Below are positions 12,621 to 55,472 of a stretch of DNA of 64,000 nucleotides, one piece after another (within the stretch, counting starts at the first letter, position 1; every line of letters begins with the position of its first letter). Under the pieces are notes generated by a model. The model did no database searches, was not told the DNA's origin, and was given only the letters and a program-made list of their open reading frames with translations. The stretch lies in the NCBI GenBank assembly GCA_018399715.1, contig JAGYNR010000003.1, positions 831 to 64,830 on the forward strand, written 5' to 3'. Origin of the DNA: Desulfobacterales bacterium. GTDB taxonomy: Bacteria; Desulfobacterota; Desulfobacteria; Desulfobacterales; SKZT01. A program made the position numbers and the translations under genes.

Positions 12621-12621
12621 A

Positions 12622-13851: not shown

Positions 13852-13864
13852 AGGGGGTTAATAT

Positions 13865-14308: not shown

Positions 14309-14328
14309 TAGTTCCTTTTCGATCTTCA

Positions 14329-15334: not shown

Positions 15335-15350
15335 CAGGATGTTACAGTAG

Positions 15351-16013
15351 ATGGGCATTCATAATTTACCTAAATCTTATAAGGGGTTTACACTCCTGGA
15401 GCTTTTAATCTCAATGACCATTGTGGCGGTTATTGTGGTAATTATTTTCGGGGCTTTAAGAGTTAGTGTCAGAGCATGGGAAAAAGGTGAGAGCGATATA
15501 GAGAGGCAGCAGCGGTATCGTATTGTGTTAAACCTGATCAACCGTCAGATGTCTTCCATTTATTTGAAGAAAGTTAAAAAAGAAGACAAACAAGAGCTGG
15601 TGCTGAAAGGAACTCCTGAGTCATTCGAATTTGTCTCTAATGTTTCCCTTTTGCCGGATAACGATTACGGCATGGTCTTTGCAAAATATGATATTTCTGA
15701 GACAGAAGATGGTACAAAACGGCTGACGTTATTTGAAAAAAATCTTGTGTTCTTTAATGAAAAATCCAGTTTTACAGATATCGATCCGGATGAATTTTAT
15801 GAAATGATACCATCTGCCGAACAAATTTCGTTCGAATATTTCAACGTTTTAGAACCCGAAGATTTCCGGGAATGGCAGGATAACTGGTCTCCGGAAGACC
15901 AACAGCAGCCACCGCTGGCCATTCGGATAAGCATTGTTCCGGAAGCGGATATGGCTCCGGTGGTTATCATTGCTCCGATTAACCAGGAAAGTGATGAAAA
16001 CGCAAGTTTATAA
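15351..16013 (+). CDS. gspJ: Minor pseudopilin, GspJ-like
   Basis: YKG|FTLLELLISMTIVAVIVV. Position in cluster. Confidence 0.6.
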   Translation: MGIHNLPKSYKGFTLLELLISMTIVAVIVVIIFGALRVSVRAWEKGESDIERQQRYRIVLNLINRQMSSIYLKKVKKEDKQELVLKGTPESFEFVSNVSLLPDNDYGMVFAKYDISETEDGTKRLTLFEKNLVFFNEKSSFTDIDPDEFYEMIPSAEQISFEYFNVLEPEDFREWQDNWSPEDQQQPPLAIRISIVPEADMAPVVIIAPINQESDENASL

Positions 16014-17040
16014 CCAAAAAATGAGTCACAAACATAATAAAGGCGTGGCGCTTTTATTGGTTATCTGGGTGCTGGCATTATTATCTGTAATTGTGGGGGA
16101 ATTTTGCCATGCTATGAAAACGGAGGTTAATATTACCCGGAATTTCAAAGAGCAGACACAGGCGTTTTATATTGCCAGGGCCGGTTTGCTGAAAGCAGTT
16201 TCCGGGCTGATTACCCTGGAAACTACACCCCCTAAGACAACGGATACGAAACTTTTTTCGGATGAAGACAATGAGGATTCAGACACTGTTAAATGGCGGA
16301 TCAATATCGACATTGAAGATATTCCGTTTGAGCCGGGTGTATTTTCCGTTAATATCGGCAACGAGGCAGGGAAAGTCAATATTAATAAAGCAGGCCAAAA
16401 TCTATTAAAAATGATGTTAAACGGGTTTGATCTTGATGACCAGGACAAGGCAGTAATCGTTGATTCCATACTTGACTGGCGGGATGAAAATGATTTTCAT
16501 CGGCTTAACGGCGCTGAAAATAATTATTACCAGTCTCTTGCCGAGCCCTATGAGTGTAAAAATGATTTTTTTGATTCAGTGGAAGAATTGCTTCTGGTCA
16601 AAGGTGTTACAGAAGAAATCTTTTACGGGGGATTAGAGGATCTGGTGACAGTTTATATCGATGAGTTCGATGGAGAGCCGAAGCGGCGGGCCAGAAAATC
16701 TGAATTTAATTATAATCAGATCAATATTAACTATGCGCCGGAACAAGTACTTCTGGCGCTTCCCCAGATGACCGGGGAACTTGTTCAGGAACTAGTGGCT
16801 TTTAGAAAAGAAAAAGATCTGACCATGCCCGATATTCTTGAAATTGTGGGTGCCGGGGTGTATGCGGAAATGAGTCCTTATATTACGACTGCGACAACTG
16901 CAAAATCTCCTTTTTATACTATTGTTACGGAAGGAAAAATACAGGGCAGCCCGGTTACGCACTGTCTCGAGGTTTTACTTCAAATCGACACACGGCTTGA
17001 TAAAAAGTTTAAAATATATAAATGGATTGATAAAGGATAA
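15994..17040 (+). CDS. gspK: Minor pseudopilin, GspK-like
   Basis: KGVALLLVIWVLALLSVIVGEF (no Glu5, typical of GspK). Helix-hairpin-helix-like C-domain. Start chosen at ATG 15994 (AGGAAAG RBS). Confidence 0.6.
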   Translation: MKTQVYNQKMSHKHNKGVALLLVIWVLALLSVIVGEFCHAMKTEVNITRNFKEQTQAFYIARAGLLKAVSGLITLETTPPKTTDTKLFSDEDNEDSDTVKWRINIDIEDIPFEPGVFSVNIGNEAGKVNINKAGQNLLKMMLNGFDLDDQDKAVIVDSILDWRDENDFHRLNGAENNYYQSLAEPYECKNDFFDSVEELLLVKGVTEEIFYGGLEDLVTVYIDEFDGEPKRRARKSEFNYNQININYAPEQVLLALPQMTGELVQELVAFRKEKDLTMPDILEIVGAGVYAEMSPYITTATTAKSPFYTIVTEGKIQGSPVTHCLEVLLQIDTRLDKKFKIYKWIDKG

Positions 17041-17064
17041 TAATTTAAGGAGATAATATTACCA

Positions 17065-18444
17065 TTGTTGTTTCGGTCTGGTCTTGGCATATATTTTCAT
17101 GAAAACGGCCTTTGCATGGCATATCTGAAGCGGTCTTTCAAATCCATCAAAGTGGCCGGACAGGCGTCTTATGTGATTGAACCGGATAAGGGGCTTTCAG
17201 AAAAACTGAATTTAGCGGCAGATTACATTAAAGATTTTATCAACACCAACCGGATATCATCTCCGGATGTGTTTATCGGAATTCCAAGAGAGATGGTGAT
17301 TCTGCGGGATATTGAATTTCCATTTGCGGTAAAAGAAAACCTGAGAGCTACTATTGAATATAAAATTGAAAATTATGTGCCATTAAAAAGCGACGACATT
17401 TATTTTGACTGTCAGATTATAGATGAGGTTAAAGGAAAGAATCAATTACGGGTATTGATCGTTGTTGTTCGACGGGAAGTGATCGATTCGTTTTTAATAT
17501 TAAAAAGCCGTTTGGGGTTGGGACTCACAGGGATTGGTATCAGTTCTACAGCCCTGGTAAATTATTTTTCCTATCATCCGGATACTGCCGAAAAAAAAGA
17601 GTATGCTTATATTTATATAAATCACCACGGAATGCATATAGGTGCCGTAAAAAACAACATGTTGCAGTATTCCCGGATAGTCGATCTTCGTAACGGTGAA
17701 GATCGGCAACGGGTGATAGATAAAGAGTTAAAACCGATTACCAATTTTTTTGCGGGTGACACCGGTCCGATACCTACGATTATCTGTACAGATAAAGAGG
17801 ATCCCTCTATTCTTGAGATTCTGAATGAAAAGAAGAATTTTCAATTGATTGTTCCTCAATTATCCCGTATTGATACGCAATCGTCACTGATGGTTCCTGC
17901 GTTTGGGCTTGCCCTGCGGGAATTGCGTAAGGTTCCCATGGATATTAATCTGCTTCCCGCAGGAATGCGAAAGCGGCCCGGCAGAACCGCGTACTACCTG
18001 TTGCTGATACTTGTTTCACTGTGTATTATTTTCTGCCTTTCATGGGGGGGAAGTAAACTCATGCGTCAGCGGTTAAGATTAAATACAATCAATGAGGAAA
18101 CCGAGCGCCTGCTGGCGGAAATAAAAAATATAGATCGTATCAGATCCGATTTGCAGGAGCTGGAAGACCGGATTGAGTTTTTGAACGAATTATGGCGCGG
18201 TCAGGTACCCGTGTTGGAAATCCTCAAAGAGGTGACCATCAGAATTCCGGAGGACACCTGGATCAGGGATTTTAGTTACGATGAAAAGGGTGTGAGCATT
18301 TATGGGTATGCAGATTCGGCATCGGAGCTGATAACGCTCTTAGAAAAATCTCCGTTGTTTAAAGATGTGGTCTTTTTATCGACGATTACCAAGGATCGTG
18401 CTGGGAAAAAACGATTTCGGATCGGATTTAAATTGAATTCATAG
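17065..18444 (+). CDS. gspL: GspL-like assembly protein (PilM-like cytoplasmic domain + TM + PilN-like periplasmic domain)
   Basis: One central TM (AYYLLLILVSLCIIFCLSW), coiled segment after the TM. Position between gspK and the gspM-like gene. Confidence 0.55.
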   Translation: MLFRSGLGIYFHENGLCMAYLKRSFKSIKVAGQASYVIEPDKGLSEKLNLAADYIKDFINTNRISSPDVFIGIPREMVILRDIEFPFAVKENLRATIEYKIENYVPLKSDDIYFDCQIIDEVKGKNQLRVLIVVVRREVIDSFLILKSRLGLGLTGIGISSTALVNYFSYHPDTAEKKEYAYIYINHHGMHIGAVKNNMLQYSRIVDLRNGEDRQRVIDKELKPITNFFAGDTGPIPTIICTDKEDPSILEILNEKKNFQLIVPQLSRIDTQSSLMVPAFGLALRELRKVPMDINLLPAGMRKRPGRTAYYLLLILVSLCIIFCLSWGGSKLMRQRLRLNTINEETERLLAEIKNIDRIRSDLQELEDRIEFLNELWRGQVPVLEILKEVTIRIPEDTWIRDFSYDEKGVSIYGYADSASELITLLEKSPLFKDVVFLSTITKDRAGKKRFRIGFKLNS

Positions 18445-18456
18445 GATACATGTGAA

Positions 18457-19020
18457 TTGGATATAAAGTTTAATATTAGTAAAGAAAGAAAAATTATACT
18501 GATTGCCGGTGTTGTTTTGCTTTTAATGGGTGTCATATACCGGTATTTTCCGGTTTTCGACAGCTTTACGTCATTAGATGATGAAATTGCGCTGAAGGAA
18601 CAAAAACTCATCAAATATCGAAAGATGGTTCAGGAAAGAAACGAACTGGAGCAAAAACTGATAAGACTGAACCGAATCCTTGAGAGGGCAGAATCCGGCT
18701 TGTTGACAGGTGATACGCCTTCCCTGGCGGCTGTGGACATTCAAAATATAATTAATAAAATAGCAGGAAATATCGGGGCTGAAGTGTTGACTATGCGGGT
18801 GCTTAAAGTCGATGAAAAGGAGGAAACCCTTTATATGGCCATACCCGTTCAGGTTACGTTTCGTAGCAGAATGCGCCAGTTAAAGGAACTGCTTTACATG
18901 ATCGAAGACAATCCAAAACTTCTCAAAATCAGCGATTTCAGAATTCGGATGATACACGGTAAGGAGGAAGGGGAAGTTCAGGCGACACTTACCGTTGAAG
19001 GTTTTATGAAAAGAACATAA
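18457..19020 (+). CDS. gspM: GspM/PilO-like bitopic assembly protein
   Basis: N-terminal TM (IILIAGVVLLLMGVIY), coiled coil, ferredoxin-like C-domain size. Position in cluster. Confidence 0.5.
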   Translation: MDIKFNISKERKIILIAGVVLLLMGVIYRYFPVFDSFTSLDDEIALKEQKLIKYRKMVQERNELEQKLIRLNRILERAESGLLTGDTPSLAAVDIQNIINKIAGNIGAEVLTMRVLKVDEKEETLYMAIPVQVTFRSRMRQLKELLYMIEDNPKLLKISDFRIRMIHGKEEGEVQATLTVEGFMKRT

Positions 19021-19047
19021 TTTGCCAGGTGCTGTGGGAAAATCTGT

Positions 19048-19824
19048 ATGTTTTCTAAGATATGGCTGATCAATATTATTTTGGCAGCGTTTGTAATTTT
19101 ATTTGCTGTGAAAACCTATGATGTATGGTTTGACAATAAAGTAAAAGAATGGAAAAGTCCCCATGAAACCAAAAATGTCGGGTCTGATGTTGAGAAAAAA
19201 TTTTCAAAACGAAAGCTTCCTCCTGGATCCAATTATGAGGTAATTGTAGAGAAAAATCTTTTTAGAGAAGAACGTACTGAATATCTTCCCGAACCCGAAC
19301 CTGATCCGGATTTGGAACCGGGATCCCAATCCGGAAAAGAACCGGAAATTAAAAGCCTTGAGAGTTTCGGAGCAAAAATTGATCTTTACGGTGTCGTTTT
19401 ATGGAAAGATTATAAGAAAGCCTTGGTTACCAATACGGAAAGAAACATAGGTGGATCCGGAGAAAAATGGGTGCAAAAAGGAGATACCATTCTGGAGGTA
19501 AAAAAACTAAACGAAAACATTCAGTTGGTTGTGGAAGAAATTTTTGAGGATCGGATACTGATCAAAGACGGCAAGGATTGCTATGAAATTCTGTTGTATG
19601 ACAAAGATAAATCCAAAAAGCGGGGCAATGTTGATAGAAGCCAGGGGCCGGAGGTGATCTCATCTGTTGACCGGTCAAAACAACAGGGAGCTGTAAAAAG
19701 TATAGCCGCTGGTAAAGAGCGAAACCCTGAAAAAGACAACAATGTGAAAAAGGAAGCACCATCAGAACCTGAATATGAAGTTATCAATACCCCGTTCGGA
19801 AAGATCAAGCGAAGGAAACAATAG
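19048..19824 (+). CDS. Bitopic periplasmic protein, GspC/PilP-like by position only
   Basis: N-terminal TM, Pro/Glu-rich linker (EPEPDPDLEPGSQ), beta-rich domain, Lys-rich tail. Immediately upstream of the secretin. Confidence 0.35.
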   Translation: MFSKIWLINIILAAFVILFAVKTYDVWFDNKVKEWKSPHETKNVGSDVEKKFSKRKLPPGSNYEVIVEKNLFREERTEYLPEPEPDPDLEPGSQSGKEPEIKSLESFGAKIDLYGVVLWKDYKKALVTNTERNIGGSGEKWVQKGDTILEVKKLNENIQLVVEEIFEDRILIKDGKDCYEILLYDKDKSKKRGNVDRSQGPEVISSVDRSKQQGAVKSIAAGKERNPEKDNNVKKEAPSEPEYEVINTPFGKIKRRKQ

Positions 19825-19829
19825 TCTGC

Positions 19830-22202
19830 ATGAACCTGAACCAAAGCCTTTTTAAAGCTCTTTTACGTTTTAGTGTGTATTGTCTGTTGATTGTGATGAT
19901 GGCGTTTGCAGGATGTGCCTCGCAGAAACACCGTTTGAAAAAAGAACCCAAAATCGTTGACAACCAGAAAGAAGCCTCTCCGCTATTGGAAAAAGTTGAT
20001 TCAAAAGATATAAAAGAATCAAAAAGGGAGTCCCGCGGGATTATTTCGACTCCTTTCGGTGATATGCCGATTGACAGATCTGTCATAACCCCTCTTTCAG
20101 AAGAGATTTCCAAAGACCCCTCACGTACAGTTCAGGTGGAAGATAGACCCGTTGAAAAAGTACATTCGAAAAAGGAAAAAGTCTCAAAAACACCTGCTAT
20201 AAATAAAAAAACAGAAACACAGGTCAATCCACCAAAGGAAAAAGAAGCTTCCGGCAATAATGATAAAACCGCTGAGGGAGGCGAAATTGTTTTAAACTTC
20301 GATAACGCCGATTTGTATGAAGTAGTCAGAACTTTAGGTGAAATACTGGAAATAAATTATATCGTCGATCCGAATGTACGCGGAAATGTGACGATTCATA
20401 CGGCCGGAAAATTAAAAAAAGATGATTTGTTTCCTGTTTTTTTTCAGATTTTGGAAGCCAATGGTCTTACCGCCGTTAAAGAGGGGGCTCTTTATAAAAT
20501 TATGAACCTAAAAGATGCTTCCCAGCTTCCTGTTCGGACCCAAATCCCTGGTAAGGCTCTGGATATAGGGTCGTCAGAACGGATCATTATTCAAATCATT
20601 CCCTTAGAGTATATTTCCGTACAGGAGATGACCAAGATTATAACTCCTTTTGTAACTTCAGGAGGAACCATTGTTTCTCATGAGGATTCCAATACACTGC
20701 TTATTGTTGATAAAACATCCAATATTGAAAAAGTGTTGAGACTAATCGATGTTTTTGATATTGATTTGTTCAAAAAAGTAAACCATCGGTTTTATCGGCT
20801 TCGGTATGTTGATGCCGAGGAATCTGCCAAGGCTGTCGAGGAGATTCTTGCTTTCTATGTGTCATCACCAAAAGATGAGTTCAAATTAATCCCTGTAAAA
20901 AGAATCAATTCGCTGTTACTGATCAGCAAAAACCCCTTAACCTTTCAAAAAGTGGATGCCGTTATCGAGGAAATAGATATTCCGGTGGAAGATGAAGAAC
21001 CCCGAATATATGTCTATTCCGTTAAAAATGGTGGCGCTGCTGAACTCTCCGAGCTACTCAATTCGGTTTTTTCAAAAAGTGATCAGGATAAAAAGGGTAA
21101 GCCGGAAATCAGCCAAAAGCCTGAAGAAGAAAAAACAGGTGGCGTCAAAGAGCTGTTTCCCTCAAAAACTGCCAGTAAAACCCAAACCACAAAAGGAGAA
21201 AGCATCATTGCAGAGGGCTCCGGAACCTTAAAAGGAGAAATTAAAATTACGCCCGATGAAATTCGGAATTCTTTGATTATCGAGGCTTCTCCCCGCGATT
21301 ACAGGGTTATCACCAGTATTTTGCAGCGGGTTGATATTTTGCCGCGTCAGGTATTAATTGAGGTCACTATTGCTGAGATTTCCTTTCTTTCTACGACTGA
21401 ATTGGGTATTGAATGGCAGTTTGACCGCATTGGTGCCGATGAAGATGTCGTTGCCGGCTTACAGAATGGTGCCACGTTAGGAAGTGCCGGTCTGAATTTT
21501 TCCTGGGCAATTTTGGATCAGGCCAAAAAATGGTCAGCCAGGCTAAAAGCCATGGCGGTGGAAGACAAGTTAAATATTTTGTCCTCGCCCACTGTTTTGG
21601 CGTCAGACAACAAGGAGGCCCAAATTAATATATCTACGGAAGTACCGGTTGCTTCTACTACTTATGATTACAGGGATTCAGATGACGATTTGCTTCAAAC
21701 CAATATAGAATACCGCAATACCGGCGTGATTTTATCGGTAACCCCCCATATCAACGAATTCGGCCTGGTTAGTATGGATGTCAGTCAGGAAGTGAGCGAA
21801 CAGGGTGATCCGGTGGACTTGGGTACCGGCACTCAGTCGAATCCAGAAACCCGTCCCTCTTTTCTAAACAGAAGCATCGATACATCATTGACCGTTAAAA
21901 GTGGCCAGACCATCGTTATCGGTGGCCTGATCAGGGAAAACGAAAGTCGCGGACGGGCAGCCATGCCTTGTTTAGGGGAAATCCCTGTGCTTTCCTATGT
22001 GTTTGGGAAAAAACAAAATAGCATTGACAAAACCGAATTGATTGTTTTTATAACTCCCAAAGTAATAGCCACTCTCGATGATGTTGATTCTGTCTCAGAG
22101 GAATTCAGAAACCGGATCGATTTCAAGTATGAAGATTTCTGGAGAACATCACCCCGGGAGCCTGAAATGGATCCGAACAGCCGGCTTGAACCAAACCAAT
22201 AA
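19830..22202 (+). CDS. gspD: Secretin GspD with lipobox-like signal peptide
   Basis: LLIVMMAFAGC|ASQ signal. N0-N3 repeats. Secretin core LSSPTVLASDNKEAQINI ... GQTIVIGGLI ... IPVLSYVFG ... ELIVFITPKVI. Confidence 0.9.
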   Translation: MNLNQSLFKALLRFSVYCLLIVMMAFAGCASQKHRLKKEPKIVDNQKEASPLLEKVDSKDIKESKRESRGIISTPFGDMPIDRSVITPLSEEISKDPSRTVQVEDRPVEKVHSKKEKVSKTPAINKKTETQVNPPKEKEASGNNDKTAEGGEIVLNFDNADLYEVVRTLGEILEINYIVDPNVRGNVTIHTAGKLKKDDLFPVFFQILEANGLTAVKEGALYKIMNLKDASQLPVRTQIPGKALDIGSSERIIIQIIPLEYISVQEMTKIITPFVTSGGTIVSHEDSNTLLIVDKTSNIEKVLRLIDVFDIDLFKKVNHRFYRLRYVDAEESAKAVEEILAFYVSSPKDEFKLIPVKRINSLLLISKNPLTFQKVDAVIEEIDIPVEDEEPRIYVYSVKNGGAAELSELLNSVFSKSDQDKKGKPEISQKPEEEKTGGVKELFPSKTASKTQTTKGESIIAEGSGTLKGEIKITPDEIRNSLIIEASPRDYRVITSILQRVDILPRQVLIEVTIAEISFLSTTELGIEWQFDRIGADEDVVAGLQNGATLGSAGLNFSWAILDQAKKWSARLKAMAVEDKLNILSSPTVLASDNKEAQINISTEVPVASTTYDYRDSDDDLLQTNIEYRNTGVILSVTPHINEFGLVSMDVSQEVSEQGDPVDLGTGTQSNPETRPSFLNRSIDTSLTVKSGQTIVIGGLIRENESRGRAAMPCLGEIPVLSYVFGKKQNSIDKTELIVFITPKVIATLDDVDSVSEEFRNRIDFKYEDFWRTSPREPEMDPNSRLEPNQ

Positions 22203-26253: not shown

Positions 26254-26265
26254 TTTAAATTTGTC

Positions 26266-30233: not shown

Positions 30234-30263
30234 ATAAGTATGGCGTTTTTTTCGGAAAAAATA

Positions 30264-30443: not shown

Positions 30444-31658
30444 ATGAAGAAATTTTTGTTTTTGGGTACCATGATGCTGGCCGTGCTGGCGTTCTCATTT
30501 ACCGCCGTCGCCGATGAGGTGGATTGCGGCAAATGTAAAAATTTTGGTTTAGCAGATATGGGCTGCCCGACCGGTGTTCAGGATGAGTGTGAGGCAACCC
30601 CGGTAGATTGGCCGAATATATATTTCCCCATCTGTGACTGCGAAGATGCCAATACCAATTTCAGGCAGAGTACATTACCGCCTCTTGGTGGTGAAGACTT
30701 GGATGAAAATTATATCGGCGTCAGAATCAAAATCCTCACCCCGGGCGTATATTTCGGCGATGCCACCGGTGATATAGATTTCTTGGCTTATGAAAGCGAA
30801 AGTGCTCTATGCGCGGATGTTGGTAAATATACGGGTGATTTTAAACAGGGCAGTTTTTCGGTTGTGTACTATGATGATTTAAATTGTATCCCCGGTGATG
30901 AACTTGATGAGGATGATATCAATGGTGTGGGGCTTGATTGCGAACTTGAGCCTAATGAGAAGGCTGTTTCATTGGCTACAAGGGGAGACACCGCTGCTAA
31001 TGTTGCAGATACTTTTTTCCTGATGCCGGATGCGGATGAAACAAAAATAGTCACTGCGCCGTATACCGCTGCTGATTATGAAAACTGGGCCGGTTATTCC
31101 TACTGGGCCATAGAAATTCCAACTTTAAGATATGATGCCAGTGAAGTGATGTCCTATGGATATCAGGCGGAAAAAGTTCTGATTAAAATTGAGCTGGTTG
31201 CCCCGGGTGTCGGCGGTATATGCCAGGGTCCCTGTAATGTTATCTGCGAGTGTACGGTTGAAGTCGCGGAAATATGTCCTGACGAATATGGCTGCCTGGT
31301 GTTCCCGTATGTCATAACCCAGTATACCCCCTGGATTACAGGTATTGCTGTTAATAATGTCGGAGCACTGCCCGCATCGCAAATGGAAGCTACCTTTATT
31401 ATCACCGATGCTGACGGAAATCAGTTTTCTTATACGAAAGATGATTTTTCAAAGCGTAACTGGAGCAATGTTGTGGATTCCATGCTGGGTGATTTTGATG
31501 GAACGCCTGCTGCCGGAAATGCCTGGTTGAAAGTTGTAACCAATTTTAAGGCAGATGGATATTCCTTCCTTACCGATGGTGTATTCGGTGGGTCTACACT
31601 TCCCAGGTTCTGTGATAGCCACGGAGATATTAAGATCCCTTGTTGTACTAACTACTAG
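30444..31658 (+). CDS. Secreted Cys-rich protein (18 Cys in mature part) ending in one copy of the FP(H/Y)-W-TG-N module
   Basis: Signal peptide MKKFLFLGTMMLAVLAFSFTAVA. GGAGG RBS 5 nt before the ATG. Clusters CGKC, CDC, CQGPCNVICEC, PCC. C-terminal LVFPYVITQYTPWITGIAVNN...IITDADG. Confidence 0.7.
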   Translation: MKKFLFLGTMMLAVLAFSFTAVADEVDCGKCKNFGLADMGCPTGVQDECEATPVDWPNIYFPICDCEDANTNFRQSTLPPLGGEDLDENYIGVRIKILTPGVYFGDATGDIDFLAYESESALCADVGKYTGDFKQGSFSVVYYDDLNCIPGDELDEDDINGVGLDCELEPNEKAVSLATRGDTAANVADTFFLMPDADETKIVTAPYTAADYENWAGYSYWAIEIPTLRYDASEVMSYGYQAEKVLIKIELVAPGVGGICQGPCNVICECTVEVAEICPDEYGCLVFPYVITQYTPWITGIAVNNVGALPASQMEATFIITDADGNQFSYTKDDFSKRNWSNVVDSMLGDFDGTPAAGNAWLKVVTNFKADGYSFLTDGVFGGSTLPRFCDSHGDIKIPCCTNY

Positions 31659-31753
31659 AAAACCAAAATTAGTTGCAACAAGCTCTCCAGGTCACATGTT
31701 TTTCAACCATTAAGCAGGCCTGGAAAATGAAAAATTGAAAAACAAACCAAATG

Positions 31754-31792
31754 ATGGGCGGAATTTATTTCAGATTCCGCCCATTTCTTCTG
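31754..31792 (+). terminator. Rho-independent terminator
   Basis: 11-bp perfect stem atgggcggaat / attccgcccat, 9-nt loop, followed by TTCTTCT. Confidence 0.8.
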
Positions 31793-31810
31793 AATGAACC
31801 GAATTCTGTT

Positions 31811-31961
31811 AAATAGTGCCCGAACGAAAACTAGGATTTTTCGTTAAGATCAAGGAAGACAAAAATTTTAATCACAGACATACATTGAGTATTTTGAGGA
31901 TTAAAATTTGAGTCTGACGCAGATATTGGCGAAAAAGACAGTTTTCGTTCAGGCACTAAAT
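31811..31961. repeat. Palindromic intergenic repeat, copy B (inverted relative to copy A)
   Basis: 19-bp terminal inverted repeat tagtgcccgaacgaaaact (31814-31832) / agttttcgttcaggcacta (31940-31958), 1 mismatch. The core (31862-31909) has an 11-bp perfect internal stem aaattttaatc / gattaaaattt. Confidence 0.6.
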
Positions 31962-32108
31962 AAATGGTTAAAAAAATGATTTTAATTTATGATAATTATT
32001 GTTAAATTATGTATAGGTTACAGGCTCCGGAATAAGGCAAAAGAATAAAACAAAAATAGATGATGATATTTTTTATTTAATGCTGTTTATAAAGAGGAAC
32101 ACGGTAAT

Positions 32109-34595
32109 ATGAAAATTAAAGCGTTACTTTTTTTTCTGTTTGGATGGTTTTTATGGTTAGCCCCGTCAACTTATTCTTTTGCATTATCCGGGGGGCCGGA
32201 TGGATTCGGGTATATGTATGAGGATTCCGGACTTGAAAACTGGACGGACATATCCAAATCCGGAACCCATTTGAATGTAGTCAAAGATACCATCAGTGAT
32301 CCGGTTTGGATGGGTTTTGATTTTGAATTTTATGGAAATACTTATAGTGATGTGAGTGTTGCCAGCAACGGACTAATAACCTTCAGTCCGAAGTCTTATC
32401 GCAGGGGATATACATCGGGACAGGAAATTCCTACACCCGGGGGGTATGCGGATAATTTTATCGCCGGATTATGGGACTATCTTTCCCCCAATCACACATG
32501 AGGGGTTGAAAATTTGTATTATGAAACCCGGGGGGTTCCAGGAACGCGTCAATTTATCGTACAATATACCAATGTTATATTTGCAGGCTCTGATACAGAA
32601 AATACCTTTCAGATTATTTTAAATGAAGGCTCCAATGATATAGTGGTAAATTATATAGATGTAACAACCCGACTGAAAGATGGAGAACAAAGGACATTCG
32701 GTGGAATTGAAAATGAAGATGGTACCATTGGGCTTCAGTATGATTTGCTGGATGAAAAAGGAGATTACCAAAATAAATCTGTGCGGTACTTTCCCGGGGT
32801 GGAAACACCGGCTCCCGGCAAAGGAGTTCTTAAAGTCAATTTATTTCCGGAAGAGGCGGTTGAGGCCGGAGCACAATGGCGGCTTTCCGATCAGCGCTGG
32901 CAAGACAGCGGAGCCAGCATAAATGATCTTGAACCCGGCGAATACACGTTGGAATTTCAAGATATCAGCGGATGGGAAACGCCTGCGAATCTTTCGGTTA
33001 ACATTGAAGCTGACGAGATTACCACAAAAGAAGTTACCTATATCCGGGCAACCAGTGAAGATGAAGCTGACGGTCTGAAGGTGTTCATATATCCGGAGGA
33101 GGCTGTGAATGCCGGCGCCAAATGGCGGGTTGATGAGGGTCAGTGGAATGACAGCGGTGTCATCGTTCGCGGCTTGAGCATAGGAGAACATACGGTCAGC
33201 TTTAATACCATTGACGGATGGGATGCCCCGGATGAAATAACCGTCTCTTTGACCCGGCAGTTGCCGATGGCTCCCGGAATTTATACGCTTCCCGAAGAAG
33301 ACAATTTGGAGCAAACCACCTATACACCCAACGATACCACGATAACAAAAAATTCGCTGGTTTTTCCTCATGTCCGTAGCGATAGTACCTGGGAGACCGA
33401 AATAGGGGTGATTAATATCAGCGATACCCAGGAGCTGAACGGTTCTTTTAAATTATATAATAAATATGGCGTCATGGTTTCCGGTTTAGATGCCGTGGTT
33501 ATTTCTCCTCTGGGCAGAAAGGAAGTTACGGTCGGTTTTGATTTTTTATATCCTTATGATGCCTGCTATATCGTGTTTGAGGGTGATCATGAACATCTGG
33601 CCGGCTATATGAGACATTATGCAGATGGCAATTACAGCGTGGCAACTCCCGGTGTCCTGGCTTCCGGGGTTAGCCCCGGGGATATTTTTATTTCTCATAT
33701 TGCCTCACAGGGAACCTGGCAAACATTTATAAGTTTGGTAAACATCAATACGGAGCCGGTTTCTTTGAATATTGAATTTAACAACGGCACTTCAGGACAG
33801 ATTGATATGGATCCGGGAGCTTACCGGTATTTTGCCGTTTCAGATTTGTTTGACGGGCAGGTTCAGCCCGATATTACTTCCGCTGTTATAAAAAATGTTT
33901 CCGGAGTCATCGGAATGGAATTATTTTTAGACAATAGCAGTAAACTGGTAAGTGGCGTGCTTATCGATAACCATACTGCGGACAGACTTTATTTTCCGCA
34001 CATTGCCTTCAGCGAAGGATGGGGAACGGGCATTGTCGTTTATAATCCGTCAGAGACGGCCGCCCAGTTAACCGTTTTAAGTTATGATGCTGAGGGGAGC
34101 ATTCTGGATTCATCGAATATTACTATTCATTCAAACAAAAGATACGCTGGGACCATTGATGATCTTGGACTTCCTCAGTTAACGGAATGGATCCATATTC
34201 AGTCCACTCAGCAAATGATGGGGTTTGAGCTTTTTACAAATACGAACAAGATGGCGGGCTGTAACGGAGTCAATAACAGCCATCAAAACGGCATATTCCC
34301 GAAACTTGAAAAAAACGGTGCCAGCGGTATTGCTTTTGTAAACCCGGAAACGGATCCGGCAAATGTAACCTTAACGGCTTATAATAATGCAGGAGAGCCG
34401 GTCGCTGAAAAATCCCTGACGATTGAACCCAAAAACAAGCTGGTTATGTTTGCACATGATATTTTCAGCCAGAATCTCAAAAATGCTACCTACATCAGAT
34501 ATACTTCAGATCGTCAAATCGTTGGGTTTCAGTTAAATGCCGCTGATGGCGAAGGGATGCTCGACGGGTTGTCAGCCCTGGATATCAGCGAGTAA
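32109..34595 (+). CDS. Secreted multidomain protein interrupted by one in-frame TGA (32499-32501): NIDO-like N-domain, two W-rich beta-sandwich repeats, four FPH-W-T-N modules
   Basis: Track ORFs 32109-32501 and 32514-34595 are in the same frame. Signal peptide MKIKALLFFLFGWFLWLAPSTYSFA. FIAGLWDYL...(TGA)...LYYETRG...FIVQYTNV spans the stop. Confidence 0.6.
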
Positions 34596-37261
34596 TGATG
34601 AAGAGGCTAAGGCGGTTTAAAAGCTTCCTGTTGTCTCAAAACCCGAAGGTATATGGTTGGGCGGTCCTGATACTTTTTATTTTTCCGGTATCCTTTATCA
34701 AAATATATGACTGCGATATCTGGTGGCACATCCAACTGGGCCGAAGTATGCTCGAAAACATGGATTTGCCCGATTACACCCGTTTTTATTTTACCCCTGT
34801 TAACGTTAATTATTCGGATTTACGATATACCTGGTTGGGAGATATTTTTTTTTACGTCCTGCACTACCTGGGTAAAGACTTAAGTCTTCAGCTTCTGGTG
34901 GTGGCTGTGGTCATTTTATCATGTTATCTTCTGTACAGGATTGCCGGTCCGAAATTTAATGCATGGCATCTTTTAACCCTGATGCTGTTTGTGATCGGAA
35001 CCTTTCAAAAACAGCTCATCCGGAATTCCTTATTTGCACTTGTTTTTACGACGCTTATTTTCTGGCTGTGGTGGCAGGTAAGGTACCGGGGAAAAGAAAA
35101 AAAGATATGGTTCTTTCCGGTTCTGATGGGGGTGTGGGGATGTATACATGGCAGCTATTTGCTGGGGTTCGGGGTTATGGCCCTTATTTTTGCGGGGGAT
35201 TGGATTGATACCTTTCGCGGAATCAACCAGGGACGCAAAAAATTGACCTTTCATTATGGAATCGTGACACTGATATCTTTTATTCTGATTGTCGCTTACA
35301 ATCCAATGACAATTCATTATTTCAGGATCAATCAATTAAAGCAGATCTTTTCTCAGGGGGCTGCATCAAAAAAGGTTGTTTATTCAGATGATGATATAAA
35401 AAAGGACTTGTTCCGGCAGCAACCGGAAGAAAGTATTCTTTTGCTGTCCGGCGTTGCAGTTGAAGGGGTTTTCAAAAACGTCAAAACTTTTTTAAATACC
35501 CTCATATTTCAACAGGACAAGGATATTTTACCATCCGGAGATTTTCGTTCTCCGTTTGATTGTTTTTACTGGTTATATGTAAAAGTTTCCTTTTTCATGG
35601 GCTTAATGGGTCTTTTGTTTCTGACCGTTTTTTCGAAGCCGGTAAGGTGTTCCCATCTTTTGCCTTTTTTGGCCATATTGGTGGTTGGATCAGGATATGC
35701 CCGGACAGTCGGGTATATTCCTGTTGCAGCAACATCTGCCGTATTTATTACGGCAAGAAATGAAGAATTTAGCCTTAAAATCAGTGATCAATGGGCCAAA
35801 TGGATAGCCGGTCTGGCATTAATAGCGGTTTACGTTAATCTGGCGACCGGGTACAAAGTCCCTATCGGAACGGATCTCCATATATTCGGGATTGGGAGGA
35901 TACCGACTTATGCCGATGAAAGCGCTCATAAAATTCTCACTGATTTTCCGGAAAAAAAAGTCTTTAACACCATAATGAATGGTGGTTATTTGCTTTATAA
36001 ATGGTATCCGGAAAAAAAAGTTTTTATTGACGGCTTTTTCGCACCCCATCCGTATTCTCTTTTTTTGGATTACGGTAATTGTATCAAAGGAAAAACTGAC
36101 CCGGACGTTTTTCATAAGAAATACGGTGTGGAACTTGCCGTTATTGATCAAATCAGGCGCCCCTTACATAAACAGTTTTTAAAAAGTGATAACTGGCATG
36201 CCCGTTTTATCGATCAGGGGTCGGTTGTTTATGGTTACCAGCCTGATGATACGCTTGTAACCCCAACCCCCGCTATTTTAACCCCTGAACAGCAAATTTT
36301 GAAATTGCCTGTAAAATTTCGAACGCTCTTTGCCCGAAATTTGTTGATGATTCAAAATGATATGGTTAAAAAAGGCAGGCTGAAAGATATCCATCTGTTC
36401 AGAAAAGAGTATGCGAAATTGATCCGGAAAATGGAAAATTTGATGGTCGAGGAATCAAAAACCCTTTATCATTCAATAGATTATTATACAGGAGTATACG
36501 GAACCGTTAATTCAAAAACCATTTCCGATGAAATCGGTCATAATAAGGCATTTAAAGACAACCGGTATGAAAAAGCCGTACATTACGGCATTAAAGTTTT
36601 AGAGAAGATGCCGGAAAGAGTTCCGGTGCTGGTGAATTTATCGGAAATGTTTTCCCGGAATAAAGACGTCAAAAACAGCATAGAGTATCTGGATCGTGCC
36701 TGGGCGGCCCGGAAAAAAGATCCTGGTTTCTGGAGCAGTAACCGCTTTAATATTGCCAGGCTTTGTTTGAAACTTTCATCCTTTGCAAAAAAAAATGGTC
36801 AGTTGTTGACCGCTTACCGGTTGTTGAGCAGAGCCAACAGGACAGACAGTTCGGTAATTTCAAATAATAAATTATATGACATCGGAATTGAATTTGCCAG
36901 GAAAAAAGCCTCTCAGGGACAAGAGATAAAAGCCTATGAAATATTAAAACAAATGGAAATTGATTTCTCAGGTTACGGACGGTTTCATAATCAAATCGCA
37001 TGGTATATTCTGTCGAATAAGGATACGGTTTTCGACGGTCCTGAAGCCGCAAAAAAATATGCTGAAAAAGCGATACGTCTGATGAAAAAAAACAATGATC
37101 CGGATATCGATACCGCCTACCATACCATGGCCGAAGCCTGTTATCAATTAGGAGAATACGACAGGATGCGTGAATTTGAACAAAAAGCCCTGGCGGCCGC
37201 ACCGGATGGCAGAAAGAACTTCTACCAACCGCGGTCAGTTAAGGATCGCGGCAATAAATAA
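34595..37261 (+). CDS. Polytopic (about 12 TM) membrane protein with periplasmic domain and C-terminal TPR repeats; possible GT-C-fold glycosyltransferase
   Basis: DCD in the first periplasmic loop (FIKIYDCDIWWHIQLG), 12 hydrophobic segments in the first ~420 aa, TPR-like C-terminus (AYHTMAEACYQLGEYDRMREFEQKALAAAP). TAATG overlap with the upstream gene. Confidence 0.6.
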   Translation: MMKRLRRFKSFLLSQNPKVYGWAVLILFIFPVSFIKIYDCDIWWHIQLGRSMLENMDLPDYTRFYFTPVNVNYSDLRYTWLGDIFFYVLHYLGKDLSLQLLVVAVVILSCYLLYRIAGPKFNAWHLLTLMLFVIGTFQKQLIRNSLFALVFTTLIFWLWWQVRYRGKEKKIWFFPVLMGVWGCIHGSYLLGFGVMALIFAGDWIDTFRGINQGRKKLTFHYGIVTLISFILIVAYNPMTIHYFRINQLKQIFSQGAASKKVVYSDDDIKKDLFRQQPEESILLLSGVAVEGVFKNVKTFLNTLIFQQDKDILPSGDFRSPFDCFYWLYVKVSFFMGLMGLLFLTVFSKPVRCSHLLPFLAILVVGSGYARTVGYIPVAATSAVFITARNEEFSLKISDQWAKWIAGLALIAVYVNLATGYKVPIGTDLHIFGIGRIPTYADESAHKILTDFPEKKVFNTIMNGGYLLYKWYPEKKVFIDGFFAPHPYSLFLDYGNCIKGKTDPDVFHKKYGVELAVIDQIRRPLHKQFLKSDNWHARFIDQGSVVYGYQPDDTLVTPTPAILTPEQQILKLPVKFRTLFARNLLMIQNDMVKKGRLKDIHLFRKEYAKLIRKMENLMVEESKTLYHSIDYYTGVYGTVNSKTISDEIGHNKAFKDNRYEKAVHYGIKVLEKMPERVPVLVNLSEMFSRNKDVKNSIEYLDRAWAARKKDPGFWSSNRFNIARLCLKLSSFAKKNGQLLTAYRLLSRANRTDSSVISNNKLYDIGIEFARKKASQGQEIKAYEILKQMEIDFSGYGRFHNQIAWYILSNKDTVFDGPEAAKKYAEKAIRLMKKNNDPDIDTAYHTMAEACYQLGEYDRMREFEQKALAAAPDGRKNFYQPRSVKDRGNK

Positions 37262-37345
37262 TCGTGGCGGATAGTCATCGATATTTTCCGCGACTCTTAA
37301 TCTGATTTTATTTATATAGGTCAAGAATGCAAATGGGAGTCATCT

Positions 37346-38041
37346 ATGAAAAAAACAATAAAATTTATTTTTCTGTATTTACCAGCATTTTTTTTCGTAC
37401 TGTATTTTACCTGTCCTGCGGCGGCGTTTATGCCCAACTGGAAACCTGGAGACAGCTGGATTGTTGAGGTTTCCTACGCACGGGCGTTTGGTCCGGAAAA
37501 ATGGTCGGAACCGGTTTACTGGATCTATCGTATTTCTGATGACAAAACACAAGCACAACCCGGTATTATTTTGGAAGCCCGCCATAAAACCGATAATGCT
37601 TTGGGGTTGCGTGTATGGCTTTCCGGTGACCTGGAACCCATTAAAGTTCAGACGTTTCGCAACATCCGGGGAGAAGAGAAGATGATGGAAATTAAACCGG
37701 AACCGGGGTTTCCTGTTTGGATTCATTATACACGCGCTCCCTTTGATTTTCCGGTATTTCCCTTAGATGTTCCCGCAACCGGAACATTTACCAGAATTCG
37801 CCCTTTAAGTAATACCAGCGAGCTCCGGGTGCCAGAAATACTGAAACAGGAAAGTCGGGTAAGTGATGGAATTCCGGAAGGATATGGTTTTGAGCTTCAA
37901 TCCGGTGCCGGGGACATCATAGAAGTGACAGTATTGTCTCAGGAGCAAGAGACGTTGTTTTCTCAGTATTGGGACAAAAACCTCCCCTGGCCCCTATATG
38001 GTGAAAACAAAAACATGAAATACCGTTGGGTGAAAGAATGA
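37346..38041 (+). CDS. Secreted hypothetical protein (231 aa)
   Basis: Signal peptide ...FTCPAAAF, no recognisable motif. Stop overlaps the next start (ATGA). Confidence 0.55.
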   Translation: MKKTIKFIFLYLPAFFFVLYFTCPAAAFMPNWKPGDSWIVEVSYARAFGPEKWSEPVYWIYRISDDKTQAQPGIILEARHKTDNALGLRVWLSGDLEPIKVQTFRNIRGEEKMMEIKPEPGFPVWIHYTRAPFDFPVFPLDVPATGTFTRIRPLSNTSELRVPEILKQESRVSDGIPEGYGFELQSGAGDIIEVTVLSQEQETLFSQYWDKNLPWPLYGENKNMKYRWVKE

Positions 38042-40458
38042 AAAAGATAATTGTTTTATTACTGTTTTTGGCGCTAATTTTTTTTGGATTTGCACCGGTT
38101 TCCGCCGAAATTTACGAGGCAAGACAAATCCCATGGTCCGGACATTGGTGGCCGTTTACCGAAGGAGAGCTTGTCAATGGTTATGAAAATGATCAGGAGC
38201 CGCCATTAGCCAAATATGATATGCTGGTATCGGGAACCGCTTATGGTCCGGCGATGAAATACGGTAAACAAAATTTTTACTACCCGTACAAAGACTCCTG
38301 GACAGGGCTTTGTTTTTACTGGGCAATGTCTTCCATTCTGGAGGCAGAGCCCGAACACCGAAGTGTCCATAATAACGTGATTTTTAATATCGGAGATAAA
38401 AAGGGGCTCTTGGCCGCTTTTTATTATAATGCAATTTATGATGCCCATTCCGTTAAAAAGCCGGAAAACTTTCATGCTGTTCTTGAAGACAATATCGCCT
38501 CACAAAGAACTTCTATCATAATGGATTTGGGCAGTTCTGATGAAGTCTGGACTTATCCGGTGTTTAAATATGAAACTACCTTTAATCAAACCGGAGATGT
38601 CCGTCATTATGAGACGACCATTTACTATGCCTCCTATTCCGACCCTGATCAGACGGGAACCATGGTGAGAAATCGTACCTTTTATTATTATTTTCAGCTG
38701 GATGGAGATGTCGTTATTGACAGCGGCTGGGAGAACGGCAGCGGACAAAAACCACCGAAAAGAGCTTATATTCCCCTGGGCAGAAGACCATTGAGCAACG
38801 CTTTTGATTTGGATGCCGGTTTGATTCATGAAATTGCCGGTTCAAAAGACGATCCGTTTCATGGCAATGATTCGTTTGATACCGCATCGCCGATACAAAG
38901 CGGCGGCTATTGCCTGATAGCTTTCAATTCGGATTTTTTCACGATATATTTGGAAAACGGGGACCGGCTGAATATTCACTTAATTCCTGAAATTTCCGGA
39001 TCCGTTACGCTCGGAATTTATAATGCGGATAAGAAGTCGGTGTTGGACTCCACCCGTAAAGATTACCTGGTTTATCAGGCCGATGAAGCAGGCATTCATT
39101 ATCTGAAGATTGAACCGTCCGGAAATGAAAATAATCCGGTTTATGGGCTTTATATTCTTCAGGCGCTTTCCCGTCAGAGCCTTTTTCCGTTGGATCCGGC
39201 CGGGAACTGGATCAACGGTCTGGCTTTATTGCAACCGGACCCGGAACCAGGGCGTGTGATTCTGTCAAGGATAGATAAAAGCGGATTGCCTTTCAAAGGG
39301 AATCTCATCGATATTTTCGGCGTTCGCCGGACCGGAATCTGTGAGGGGTTTAACCTGTCTTCAGCAGCTATGGAAGGATATATCAGAGTTGACTCCGATT
39401 GGCCTGTTCTTGGAATGCAGGCGGTTACCAGCGGCAATTCCTCTTTGAAAGGCAATAACATGTTATCTTTTGACGAGGCTTCGGATGAACTGTTTTTCCC
39501 TCATTTGGCGGTCTCCCTTTTTGCCGGATGGCAGACCACTGTCGGTTTGATTAATGTCAGTCAACAAAAAGAAGAAATTTTGTTGCAGGGATATGACCCT
39601 GATGGGTCGGTTCTTGTTTCTGAATCGATATCTTTGAATCGGGGAGAGAAAAAAGAATTTAATATATCCGAGTCTTTTTTAACAAATGCGGCGAGTATGA
39701 GTGCGACGGTTGATAGCCGGAGAACCTGCCTGCTGGGATATATGGAATATACCAATTATTCATCCTCGGTTCAGGGGTGCGATGTAATTCCAGCAGCATC
39801 GGGACAGGATAGGGGGGAATTGCTTATCGCTCCCGTCGGCTCCTTAAATGGAAATTGGCATTCAGGTGTTGCTGTCATGAATACCGGGTATGAAACAAGC
39901 GAGGTCTTTTTTTCCGCCATGGATAGTCTGGGTGAAACTGTTCAAACCGTTTCCCGGGTACTGAAACCAAACCAAAAATGGGTAAAAGTCCTTGGCGCTC
40001 TTTTTCCCGGGGCGGTTGTTGAAAATATGGCTTCCATTCGGATTGAATCGCAAAACGGTCAGCCATTGACCGGGCTGGTCCTGTACATCTCCGGCTCCGG
40101 AAGGCAACTGGCCGGAATACCGTTGCTTCCGTCTTCCGAAGAGGTATTGTATGTACCACATATAGCGTCAAACAATGGCTGGTGGACAGGACTGGGACTG
40201 ATCAATGCCGGTAAGGAAGAAGAATGGATTTCCTTCTTTCTGTATGATGATAATGGGACGCTTTTAGATACGGTTGAAAAAGGTCTGTTTCCCGGCGAAC
40301 AATTTAATTCGTCTGTCCGGAACCTGTTTAATCCGGATATGGTTGATAGTCCGGGATATATAGAAATTACCGGCAGTGGAAACTGCCCGCTTAGCGGGGC
40401 GTATCTGATAGGTACACAAGATGGTTATAAACTCATGGGCGATGCACTTGCTCGTTAA
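38038..40458 (+). CDS. Secreted multidomain protein: Cys-containing N-domain (possibly transglutaminase/papain-like), PPC-like domain, four FPH-W-T-N modules
   Basis: Signal peptide MKKIIVLLLFLALIFFGFAPVSA. SWTGLCFYWAMSSILEAEP motif. PPC-like GGYCLIAFNSDFFTIYLENGDRLNIHL...GIHYLKIEP...YGLYIL. Four C-terminal modules from about 39175. Confidence 0.7.
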   Translation: MKKIIVLLLFLALIFFGFAPVSAEIYEARQIPWSGHWWPFTEGELVNGYENDQEPPLAKYDMLVSGTAYGPAMKYGKQNFYYPYKDSWTGLCFYWAMSSILEAEPEHRSVHNNVIFNIGDKKGLLAAFYYNAIYDAHSVKKPENFHAVLEDNIASQRTSIIMDLGSSDEVWTYPVFKYETTFNQTGDVRHYETTIYYASYSDPDQTGTMVRNRTFYYYFQLDGDVVIDSGWENGSGQKPPKRAYIPLGRRPLSNAFDLDAGLIHEIAGSKDDPFHGNDSFDTASPIQSGGYCLIAFNSDFFTIYLENGDRLNIHLIPEISGSVTLGIYNADKKSVLDSTRKDYLVYQADEAGIHYLKIEPSGNENNPVYGLYILQALSRQSLFPLDPAGNWINGLALLQPDPEPGRVILSRIDKSGLPFKGNLIDIFGVRRTGICEGFNLSSAAMEGYIRVDSDWPVLGMQAVTSGNSSLKGNNMLSFDEASDELFFPHLAVSLFAGWQTTVGLINVSQQKEEILLQGYDPDGSVLVSESISLNRGEKKEFNISESFLTNAASMSATVDSRRTCLLGYMEYTNYSSSVQGCDVIPAASGQDRGELLIAPVGSLNGNWHSGVAVMNTGYETSEVFFSAMDSLGETVQTVSRVLKPNQKWVKVLGALFPGAVVENMASIRIESQNGQPLTGLVLYISGSGRQLAGIPLLPSSEEVLYVPHIASNNGWWTGLGLINAGKEEEWISFFLYDDNGTLLDTVEKGLFPGEQFNSSVRNLFNPDMVDSPGYIEITGSGNCPLSGAYLIGTQDGYKLMGDALAR

Positions 40459-40482
40459 TATAATATATGAAAAGCTAACGAA

Positions 40483-55468: not shown

Positions 55469-55472
55469 CGCC

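Follow-up and report, generated by a model that had tools for sequence, protein, structure and literature searches.

The window analysed here is a stretch of 64,000 nucleotides from a Desulfobacterales bacterium (contig JAGYNR010000003.1, positions 831 to 64,830), in which three neighbouring genes on the + strand, here called A, B and C, encode secreted proteins that share a module of about 100-110 residues. Gene A (30444..31658) is an open reading frame (ORF) for a Cys-rich secreted protein of 404 aa, in which a signal peptide (MKKFLFLGTMMLAVLAFSFTAVA) and an N-terminal region rich in Cys precede a single C-terminal module. Gene B (32109..34595) comprises 828 codons in one frame if a UGA at codon 131 is decoded, and its product contains, in this order, a signal peptide, a NIDO-like N-terminal domain, two beta repeats of ~75 aa and four modules. 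Gene C (38038..40458) encodes a secreted protein of 806 aa, in which a signal peptide and an N-terminal region with a transglutaminase-elicitor-like domain (~38038-39177; Pfam TGase_elicitor, E 3.7e-12, 46.1 bits against a cutoff of 25) are followed by four modules. The signal peptides of all three proteins were called by eye only. The exact A and C proteins are present in a public collection, and 14 homologues of A were found, with the cysteines conserved; no Pfam match was obtained in A.

The initial annotation had aligned nine segments by eye, four in B, four in C and one in A, and had taken them to be copies of one module. All nine were confirmed within ~3 nt of where it had placed them, and they could be aligned over their full length of ~100-110 residues. 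Each module was then scored with a hidden Markov model (HMM) built from the remaining modules, with 1000 shuffles as the control. In B, the modules and their leave-one-out scores are B1 (33357..33683, LVFPHVRSDSTWETEIGVIN, 32.7 bits), B2 (33684..33986, IFISHIASQGTWQTFISLVN, 28.1 bits), B3 (33987..34289, LYFPHIAFSEGWGTGIVVYN, 53.6 bits) and B4 (34290..34592, GIFPKLEKNGASGIAFVN, 40.6 bits); in C they are C1 (39178..39489, SLFPLDPAGNWINGLALLQ, 31.4 bits), C2 (39490..39819, LFFPHLAVSLFAGWQTTVGLIN, 49.1 bits), C3 (39820..40146, LLIAPVGSLNGNWHSGVAVMN, 45.1 bits) and C4 (40147..40455, LYVPHIASNNGWWTGLGLIN, 43.8 bits), all on the + strand. The eight modules of B and C thus reached 28-54 bits, compared with a shuffled maximum of 5-9 bits. 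BLASTP aligned B with C at E 2e-18 across 297 residues, and a second alignment of the two proteins, in a register offset by one or two modules (E 2.5e-13), indicates a tandem repeat.

The module of protein A (A1, 31296..31655, +) is a single copy with the pattern LVFPYV..W.TGIAVNN...DGYSF, followed by a Cys-containing tail. In the leave-one-out test it was marginal (12.4 bits, shuffled maximum 14.0). An HMM of 601 modules taken from database relatives, from which the A family had been left out, gave it 14.7 bits against a maximum of 7.8 in ~2000 shuffles; hhalign joined the A family (14 sequences) to the module family with a probability of 97.2% and E 2.8e-11, and the A-family HMM cross-matched proteins with four tandem modules (tetrads) from a Desulfonema limicola locus, L084, at E ~1e-6. 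The predicted fold of A, described below, places A1 with the other eight modules as well. The second conserved stripe of the alignment, I.I.S....G[FYM].L, which had also been noticed by eye, is real, and its Gly is the sole invariant column across the nine modules. A six-frame translation of the whole window revealed no tenth module.

It could be argued that such similarity arises by chance or from composition and that the modules are unrelated, as the pairwise identity within one protein is just 15-27% and BLASTP gives no off-diagonal matches inside one protein. Against this stand the 28-54 bits of the leave-one-out test (below 9 bits for shuffles), 3,191 database representatives at E<=1e-10 and a common, confidently predicted fold, and we rejected this explanation as having practically no chance of being correct. 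The initial annotation had made its claim depend on whether the similarity would survive statistical alignment, and it did so both against shuffles and in BLASTP.

To find relatives, we built a profile from the nine modules and ran it against a set of 1.84 billion cluster representatives; this yielded 7,773 representatives at E<=1e-3 and 3,191 at E<=1e-10; these profile searches succeeded where a single-sequence search with the C tetrad in a word-indexed database had returned no homologues. Exactly four modules, spaced 99-110 residues apart, are present in each of the best 150 of the 7,773 representatives; one of these shows five matches, one module being split in two. No eight-module protein was seen although such a protein would score higher, so that four is a ceiling rather than a sampling effect. 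Modules of the same index are 40-47% identical between proteins, compared with 21-27% for modules of different index, and each position has its own family consensus: FPH..WETEI..N for module 1, HIAS..WWTG.SLVNT ... GLELF for module 2, YPH..WWTGIVAYNP ... GFELF for module 3 and GWTGIAFVN ... GFQLN for module 4. From the position-specific signatures and the fixed count it follows that the unit which is inherited and shuffled is the four-module block and not the single module. A different pattern was observed in one relative of 598 aa (P0002), which has four near-identical modules (LYFPHIAQ..WWTGIGLLN, period 107) and does not carry the position-specific signatures of the other relatives; this suggests recent homogenisation or a tetrad in an ancestral-like state.

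The block is located at the extreme C-terminus of its relatives or right after the signal peptide, and rarely internally. The taxon scan covered one genome per species, so that its counts are lower bounds. It fetched at least 77 loci, nearly all from metagenome-assembled genomes (MAGs) of Desulfobacterota, and the host lineages were Desulfobacteraceae, Desulfococcaceae, Desulfosudaceae, Syntrophales, Desulfatiglandales, Desulfuromonadaceae, Desulfohalobiaceae and Thermodesulfobacteriaceae; the producers are mainly sulfate reducers and syntrophs. Several paralogues per genome are found, with up to 6 loci in a single MAG among the 77 fetched. The partner domains include enzymes (papain-like and matrixin proteases, GDSL lipase, transglutaminase core, rhodanese, cyclophilin) as well as repeats and folds such as the pectate-lyase-like beta-helix, LRR, Kelch, PKD, BACON, Big_1, cadherin-like and Listeria-Bacteroides repeats. 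The most frequent of these is rhodanese (~20 of 120 close relatives). Some relatives have CBM35 or CBM96 domains. For the most part, the partners are not carbohydrate-active enzymes.

We modelled the block of B with AlphaFold2 on an alignment of 54 sequences. The model had a predicted local distance difference test score (pLDDT) of 93.7 and a predicted template modelling score (pTM) of 0.90, and pLDDT stayed at or above ~88 across the module boundaries. The initial annotation had suspected that the fourfold arrangement forms one structural unit, and the pTM, the four modules in the best 150 relatives and the position-specific signatures bear this out. It had further suggested a lectin- or propeller-like unit; the propeller-like form is not what the model shows, since each module of ~100-110 residues is built of 8-9 strands and one short helix and its structural neighbours are beta-sandwiches. 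A beta-propeller, with radially arranged blades of ~40-50 residues each forming a four-stranded antiparallel sheet, was ruled out by the AlphaFold2 secondary structure together with the fold matches.

When single B modules were compared with known structures using Foldseek, they matched TM1070 of Thermotoga maritima (1nc7, chains A, B and D) with a probability of 1.00 and template modelling (TM) scores of 0.65-0.70 on the target, superposing with a root-mean-square deviation (rmsd) of 3.0-3.2 Å over ~110 columns. The match to the Anabaena sensory rhodopsin transducer (2ii8) reached a TM score of 0.73 and an rmsd of 2.1 Å. The AlphaFold2 model of A was of medium confidence (pLDDT 68) and its Cys-rich part is too uncertain to interpret; its C-terminal part matched 1nc7 and 2ii7 with a probability of 1.0. 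As a separate observation, the whole four-module body (model of 33345-34592) was matched by a single entry, BFVD Q6XLX4, at E 2e-17 with a TM score of 0.57 on the query over 454 columns. This entry is the predicted structure of FirrV-1-C4, a protein of 525 aa from the brown-alga phaeovirus Feldmannia irregularis virus a.

TM1070 and ASRT provide the two defining structures of the ASRAH superfamily, which De Souza, Iyer and Aravind described in 2009 (PMC2739507). The superfamily fold is an eight-stranded beta-sandwich in which a nearly invariant Asn ends strand 2, and residues of this strand line a ligand cleft; TM1070 is a tetramer with such a cleft (PMC2739507). The domains occur singly, as dyads or as tetrads, the secreted families always being dyads or tetrads, and sugar binding was predicted from their contexts; the superfamily is described as 'small-molecule binding' and the fold is likened to CBM4 (PMC2739507). 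Because the module has the TM1070/ASRT beta-sandwich fold, we conclude that it very probably belongs to this superfamily. The Asn of the pattern W-x-T-G-h-x-h-x-N is present in eight of the nine window modules (Gln in C1) and at all four family-consensus positions, and in the predicted structure of the B block this hallmark-like residue terminates the second strand of every module. The conserved Trp, which follows a polar or small residue, opens the Asn-bearing strand 8 residues before the Asn; its possible counterpart in TM1070 lies in a separate first strand, 25 residues before the Asn.

The likeness to TM1070 and ASRT comprises the fold of the individual modules (TM 0.65-0.73 on the target, at a Foldseek probability of 1.0), the near-invariant Asn that ends strand 2 after a small-hydrophobic-x-hydrophobic pattern (SHEshChhN in TM1070) and the probable assembly of four units into one body, as a homotetramer there and as four fused modules here. 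There are also clear differences. TM1070 and ASRT are cytoplasmic single-domain proteins of ~115-125 aa, whereas the modules of the window lie outside the cytoplasm and are joined in tandem, add an N-terminal FPH strand and lack the ligand-contacting His and Cys of the SHEshChhN signature. In addition, the Pfam ASRT model (PF07100) misses modules of this type: it matched three of the 54 relatives at E<=1, with a best E of 0.027. In B4 a weak ASRT match (profile positions 29-66, E 0.25) sets the module Asn near profile position 34, close to the expected N32 of TM1070. Transitive searches were needed to link the ASRAH families in 2009 too (PMC2739507).

The sole Pfam model that recognises the block is DUF5719 (PF18986), which has no assigned function, and the Pfam matches of the modules to it were all below threshold. 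With a gathering cutoff of 26.2 bits, whole B scored 23.7 bits, the B block alone 25.8 bits and C 13.8 bits; module B3 matches profile positions 54-106. Among the 54 relatives, 41 were matched at E<=1 (best E 1.7e-10), and one of them, P0025, exceeded the cutoff (32.8 bits) and aligned collinearly along about two modules. Judged from these sequence matches, B and C are better regarded as forming a sister family of DUF5719 than as members of it, and DUF5719 is probably the actinobacterial ASRAH lipoprotein family of PMC2739507. No NCBIfam model matched A, B or C, and profile searches of PDB sequences gave nothing, or chance matches to spike proteins at E ~0.05. In the literature search, DUF5719 was mentioned in no paper and 'ASRAH' in one relevant paper. 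The module family is thus without a Pfam or NCBIfam model of its own, and no description of it was found in the searchable literature.

The initial annotation had stated that the module could not be assigned to a named family. This holds in so far as no Pfam or NCBIfam name applies and DUF5719 is matched only below threshold; it does not hold at the level of the fold, by which the module is placed in the ASRAH superfamily. The description that suits the module best is a large family within a known superfamily that has escaped annotation, rather than a novel kind of module. No well-characterised family was hit by the HMM, as DUF5719 lacks a known function and that of the ASRT superfamily is itself a prediction, and for this reason the finding stands.

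Protein B deserves separate attention, because reading it as a single protein, as had been done at the outset, is correct only if the in-frame TGA at 32499..32501 (+, codon 131) is decoded; otherwise the TGA interrupts the frame. Gene callers cut B into pieces of 130/131 aa and 693 aa (window 32109-32501 and 32514-34595), and the same split is found in three related assemblies (L080:9002-11491, L081:9606-12095 and L082:3072-5561). Only the upstream piece has a signal peptide. TGA ends eight of the 44 ORFs of the window and is thus an ordinary stop there, which rules out an alternative genetic code. Reinitiation past the TGA is unlikely, since there is no conserved in-frame start codon downstream. 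Over the 281 codons past the TGA, the window differs from a strain of 98% identity by 6 synonymous and 0 non-synonymous changes.

A TGA occupies the aligned position in 22 homologues (L084:10373, L016:1236, L009:3445, L002:7365 and L086-L102), which belong to several lineages and share 39-98% identity; those at 39-48% identity are from Desulfonema limicola (503 aa; CP061799, ~2,915,800-2,917,800) and from a Desulfobacterales, a Syntrophaceae and a Syntrophales MAG. In a metagenome scan we found 80 further homologues. The closest 17 have exactly one TGA each, in that column, and the 63 more distant ones have no TGA: they carry Ser, Gly, Ala, Asn or others, and Cys at the UGA column was found in only one of these 63.

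Downstream of the UGA lies a hairpin resembling a selenocysteine insertion sequence (SECIS), GAAACCC-GGG-GGGUUCC (32523..32539, +), which has one A.C mismatch and whose loop begins 28 nt past the UGA. Every UGA homologue has such a 7-bp hairpin with a GGG or GUG loop, starting 18-24 nt past the UGA, with the loop beginning at 25-31 nt. On average 6.7 of the 7 pairs are formed in the UGA homologues, compared with 2.4 of 7 at the equivalent site of 25 non-UGA homologues. In an alignment of 18 distinct sequences, 96% of the cells form pairs, and compensatory changes occur in four of the seven pairs; none of 500 shuffles equalled the observed score, and structures slid by 1-3 columns scored far lower. 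For bacterial SECIS (bSECIS) elements the published limits are a loop of 3-9 nt with G in its first two positions, a stem of 4-16 bp, a distance of 16-37 nt from the UGA and a minimum free energy (MFE) of <= -7.5 kcal/mol (PMC13188914). The hairpins of most homologues agree with all four, with stems of 7-8 bp, spacings of 25-31 nt and MFE values of -7.4 to -14.6 kcal/mol; the window copy, at -5.5 kcal/mol, falls short of the energy limit.

We had at first dismissed selenocysteine on account of the energy z-score of the window copy, the null result with Rfam and the lack of a nearby Cys. As a single sequence, the window RNA past the UGA folds no better than shuffles (z +1.09), Rfam gave no match, and no Cys is close to the TGA. 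The comparative data reversed this judgement. From the conserved UGA and the covarying hairpin we conclude that B and its relatives are probably secreted selenoproteins, with a signal peptide, a domain carrying one selenocysteine and an ASRAH tetrad. The lack of Cys counterparts is unusual and leaves room for another kind of UGA recoding or for regulation. The 64-kb window itself contains no selA, selB, selC or selD, and no tRNA was found in it. Some database entries that appear to consist of the tetrad only may be shortened products of UGA-containing genes. In the part of B between the N-terminal domain and the block, we also noticed by eye the two repeats of ~75 residues (window 32800-33350, +, residues ~235-400), VLKVNLFPEEAVEAGAQWRLSDQRWQDSG...GEYTLEF..ISGWETP and LKVFIYPEEAVNAGAKWRVDEGQWNDSG...GEHTVSF..IDGWDAP, which have no Pfam match.

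The genes around A, B and C were examined for indications of function. Upstream lie polysaccharide-synthesis genes, a complete type II secretion system (T2SS) operon, a sigma-54 two-component pair, a TonB-dependent receptor and a CAP-domain protein. By Pfam, the T2SS operon (11103..22202, +) encodes GspE, GspF, pseudopilins, GspK, a PilM/N-like protein and a secretin, and its proximity makes it a possible export route of A, B and C. The region 11103-28317 (+) continues after the T2SS with an ABC substrate-binding protein, a HAMP histidine kinase, a sigma-54 response regulator and the TonB-dependent receptor, and the order kinase-regulator-receptor is kept in related assemblies. Between B and C (34595-37261, +) lies a gene for a protein of 888 aa with a multi-pass membrane N-terminal half, weakly matching DUF6057, and C-terminal TPR repeats. 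It is conserved in related assemblies and may represent a glycosyltransferase of the GT-C type, with the adjacent secreted proteins or a polysaccharide as its substrate.

Downstream of A, B and C are a rhamnosyl-O-methyltransferase-like gene, several glycosyltransferases, Wzm and Wzt. The glycosyltransferases and methyltransferases (41981-53477; Pfam) stand beside Wzt, an ABC ATPase with the glycan-binding domain Wzt_C, and the ABC-2 permease Wzm (54179..56309, -; Pfam), which belong to an ABC-transporter-dependent polysaccharide pathway. The same gene order was found in three closely related metagenome assemblies. Across genera, the Desulfonema limicola locus L084 (CP061799, 2905824-2923506) is syntenic with window 28758-42805: it contains, in order, a CAP protein, an A-like protein, a C-like TGase-elicitor protein, small ORFs, three more tetrad proteins, an RMNT/CmcI-type methyltransferase, Wzm and Wzt. 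The C-like protein of this locus is an orthologue of C. The synteny points to a relative of Desulfonema as the source of the window.

Taken together, these data suggest how the block may work. In B and C, four modules fused head to tail would form a rigid block of ~410 residues. The count of four, which equals the tetramer of the stand-alone relatives, together with the confident inter-module geometry of the model, points to a single-chain pseudo-tetramer; the block would be the single-chain counterpart of the stand-alone homotetramer of the superfamily, with up to four clefts. Protein A, with its single module, would have to oligomerise to form the same body. The block appears to be an old mobile unit that many secreted proteins, chiefly from Desulfobacterota, carry at one terminus or the other. 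We propose that it binds carbohydrate, most likely the exported surface polysaccharide of the cell itself, and that after export this binding would hold or target a variable cargo domain at the cell surface or in the matrix, the cargo here being the transglutaminase-like domain of C and the UGA-containing domain of B. The cell's own polysaccharide is favoured as the ligand by the placement at either terminus, the many paralogues, the cargo that is mostly not carbohydrate-active and, in two genomes, the adjacency to polysaccharide-export genes. These four features, the pattern of partner domains among them, resemble by analogy those of cell-surface anchoring modules rather than those of substrate-targeting carbohydrate-binding modules (CBMs).

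A lectin-like binding role is in our opinion the most plausible reading. For glycan binding with an anchoring or targeting role we would put the chance at about even or slightly lower, and the explanation as a whole, an ASRAH tetrad that binds the surface polysaccharide of its own cell and anchors cargo, seems to us evenly balanced between right and wrong. Several observations speak against it. Sugar binding is a prediction for the ASRAH superfamily itself. The residues conserved best in the modules (W, T, G, N and the Gly of the stripe) seem to serve structure and not ligand contact, and a Trp which in the wider family occupies what would be, from the Asn spacing, the position of the ligand His of TM1070 is lacking in most B and C modules. 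Three other family members lie in unrelated neighbourhoods with no common theme, so that the connection with polysaccharide genes is based on two related genomes. The assignment of the block has weak points as well: in the Foldseek search no PDB chain covered the whole B block (TM on the query <=0.22), the link to DUF5719 is marginal for B (25.8 against 26.2 bits) and poor for C (13.8 bits), and the Pfam ASRT model scored B far below threshold (E 0.25, 11.7 bits against a cutoff of 25).

The structural look of the conserved residues would also fit a passive scaffold or spacer, that is, a rigid body without ligand that presents or oligomerises the cargo in the manner of Ig-like arrays. The inferred cleft-lining positions vary across the nine window modules, and the Foldseek neighbours include many beta-sandwich domains that belong to large enzymes and have no binding role, both of which are in line with this possibility. 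Spacer arrays, however, usually differ in copy number, whereas here a fixed count of four and the position signatures have been kept over a large radiation; moreover, the superfamily has a defined cleft and the contexts indicate binding. We therefore regard a scaffold as unlikely. If a glycan is bound, it might instead be an environmental polymer degraded by the attached enzyme, with the tetrad serving as a substrate-targeting CBM and not as an anchor to the own surface. This would agree with the relatives that have a pectate-lyase-like beta-helix, CBM35, CBM96 or BACON domains, and with the comparison of the fold with CBM4 in the ASRAH paper (PMC2739507). Since the partners are mostly proteases, lipases, rhodaneses, transglutaminases and adhesin-type repeats, not glycoside hydrolases, and the producers are chiefly sulfate reducers and syntrophs, we consider this even less likely.

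A further possibility is that the ligand of the block is not a sugar but another small molecule or an inorganic species, such as a sulfur or selenium compound or a metal, which is handed to an attached redox or transfer domain. The frequency of rhodanese among the close relatives (~20 of 120), the probable selenocysteine domain of the B-type proteins, the FPH histidine conserved in modules 1-3 of the main family and the label 'small-molecule binding' given to the superfamily (PMC2739507) can be read in this way. Yet this His is absent from the window modules C1, C3, B4 and A1, many partners are unrelated to sulfur or redox chemistry, and the modules share no conserved motif for binding metal or sulfur, which leaves such a ligand rather improbable.

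Besides TM1070 and ASRT, the closest known systems include the amidase-linked ASRAH tetrads of Chloroflexi, which are likewise secreted, contain four tandem ASRAH domains fused to an enzyme and are predicted to bind cell-envelope glycans (PMC2739507). Compared by their description, those tetrads always accompany an N-acetylmuramoyl-L-alanine amidase, whereas the present family has dozens of partners at either terminus; the taxa differ too, our family being almost entirely from Desulfobacterota. DUF5719 is alike in being the only Pfam model that recognises the block, and it differs in that B (25.8 bits, cutoff 26.2) and C (13.8 bits) lie below its cutoff. In Gram-positive surface proteins, SLH and CWB2 triplets are tandem repeats that form one pseudo-symmetric body and bind cell-wall polysaccharide, as has been demonstrated. 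Our block resembles them, as a functional analogy only, in its fixed repeat count, its position at either end of many paralogous secreted proteins and its varied cargo. Their folds are unrelated to that of the module, they have three repeats instead of four and occur in Gram-positive hosts, and binding of a surface polymer is hypothesised for the block. One may go further and imagine a phylum-wide display system of Desulfobacterota, in which the block, as a lectin-type anchor and counterpart of the SLH/CWB2 triplets, would fasten enzymes and adhesins secreted by the type II route to the polysaccharide that the cell itself exports through Wzm/Wzt, and in which one recurrent cargo would be an uncatalogued secreted selenoprotein domain with selenocysteine and without a Cys counterpart. 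So broad a picture is speculative, and we think it more doubtful than probable.

The superfamily, its predicted sugar binding and its tetrads had already been proposed in 2009 (PMC2739507); what is new is the four-module family, and the probable selenoprotein domain is an additional lead beside it. In thousands of secreted 'hypothetical' proteins of sulfate-reducing and syntrophic bacteria, ~410 residues each can now be recognised as one unit, and the tie to ASRT and ASRAH gives these proteins a testable function, glycan binding or surface anchoring. For structural work the block would be a natural single-chain version of the ASRT tetramer, if the modelled geometry is right. The conserved UGA with its covarying SECIS-like hairpin makes gene callers split these proteins, which is a concern for annotation, and it points to an extracytoplasmic selenoprotein family that standard searches for Sec/Cys pairs miss. 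The finding also suggests a means by which Gram-negative anaerobes may retain exported enzymes at their surface.

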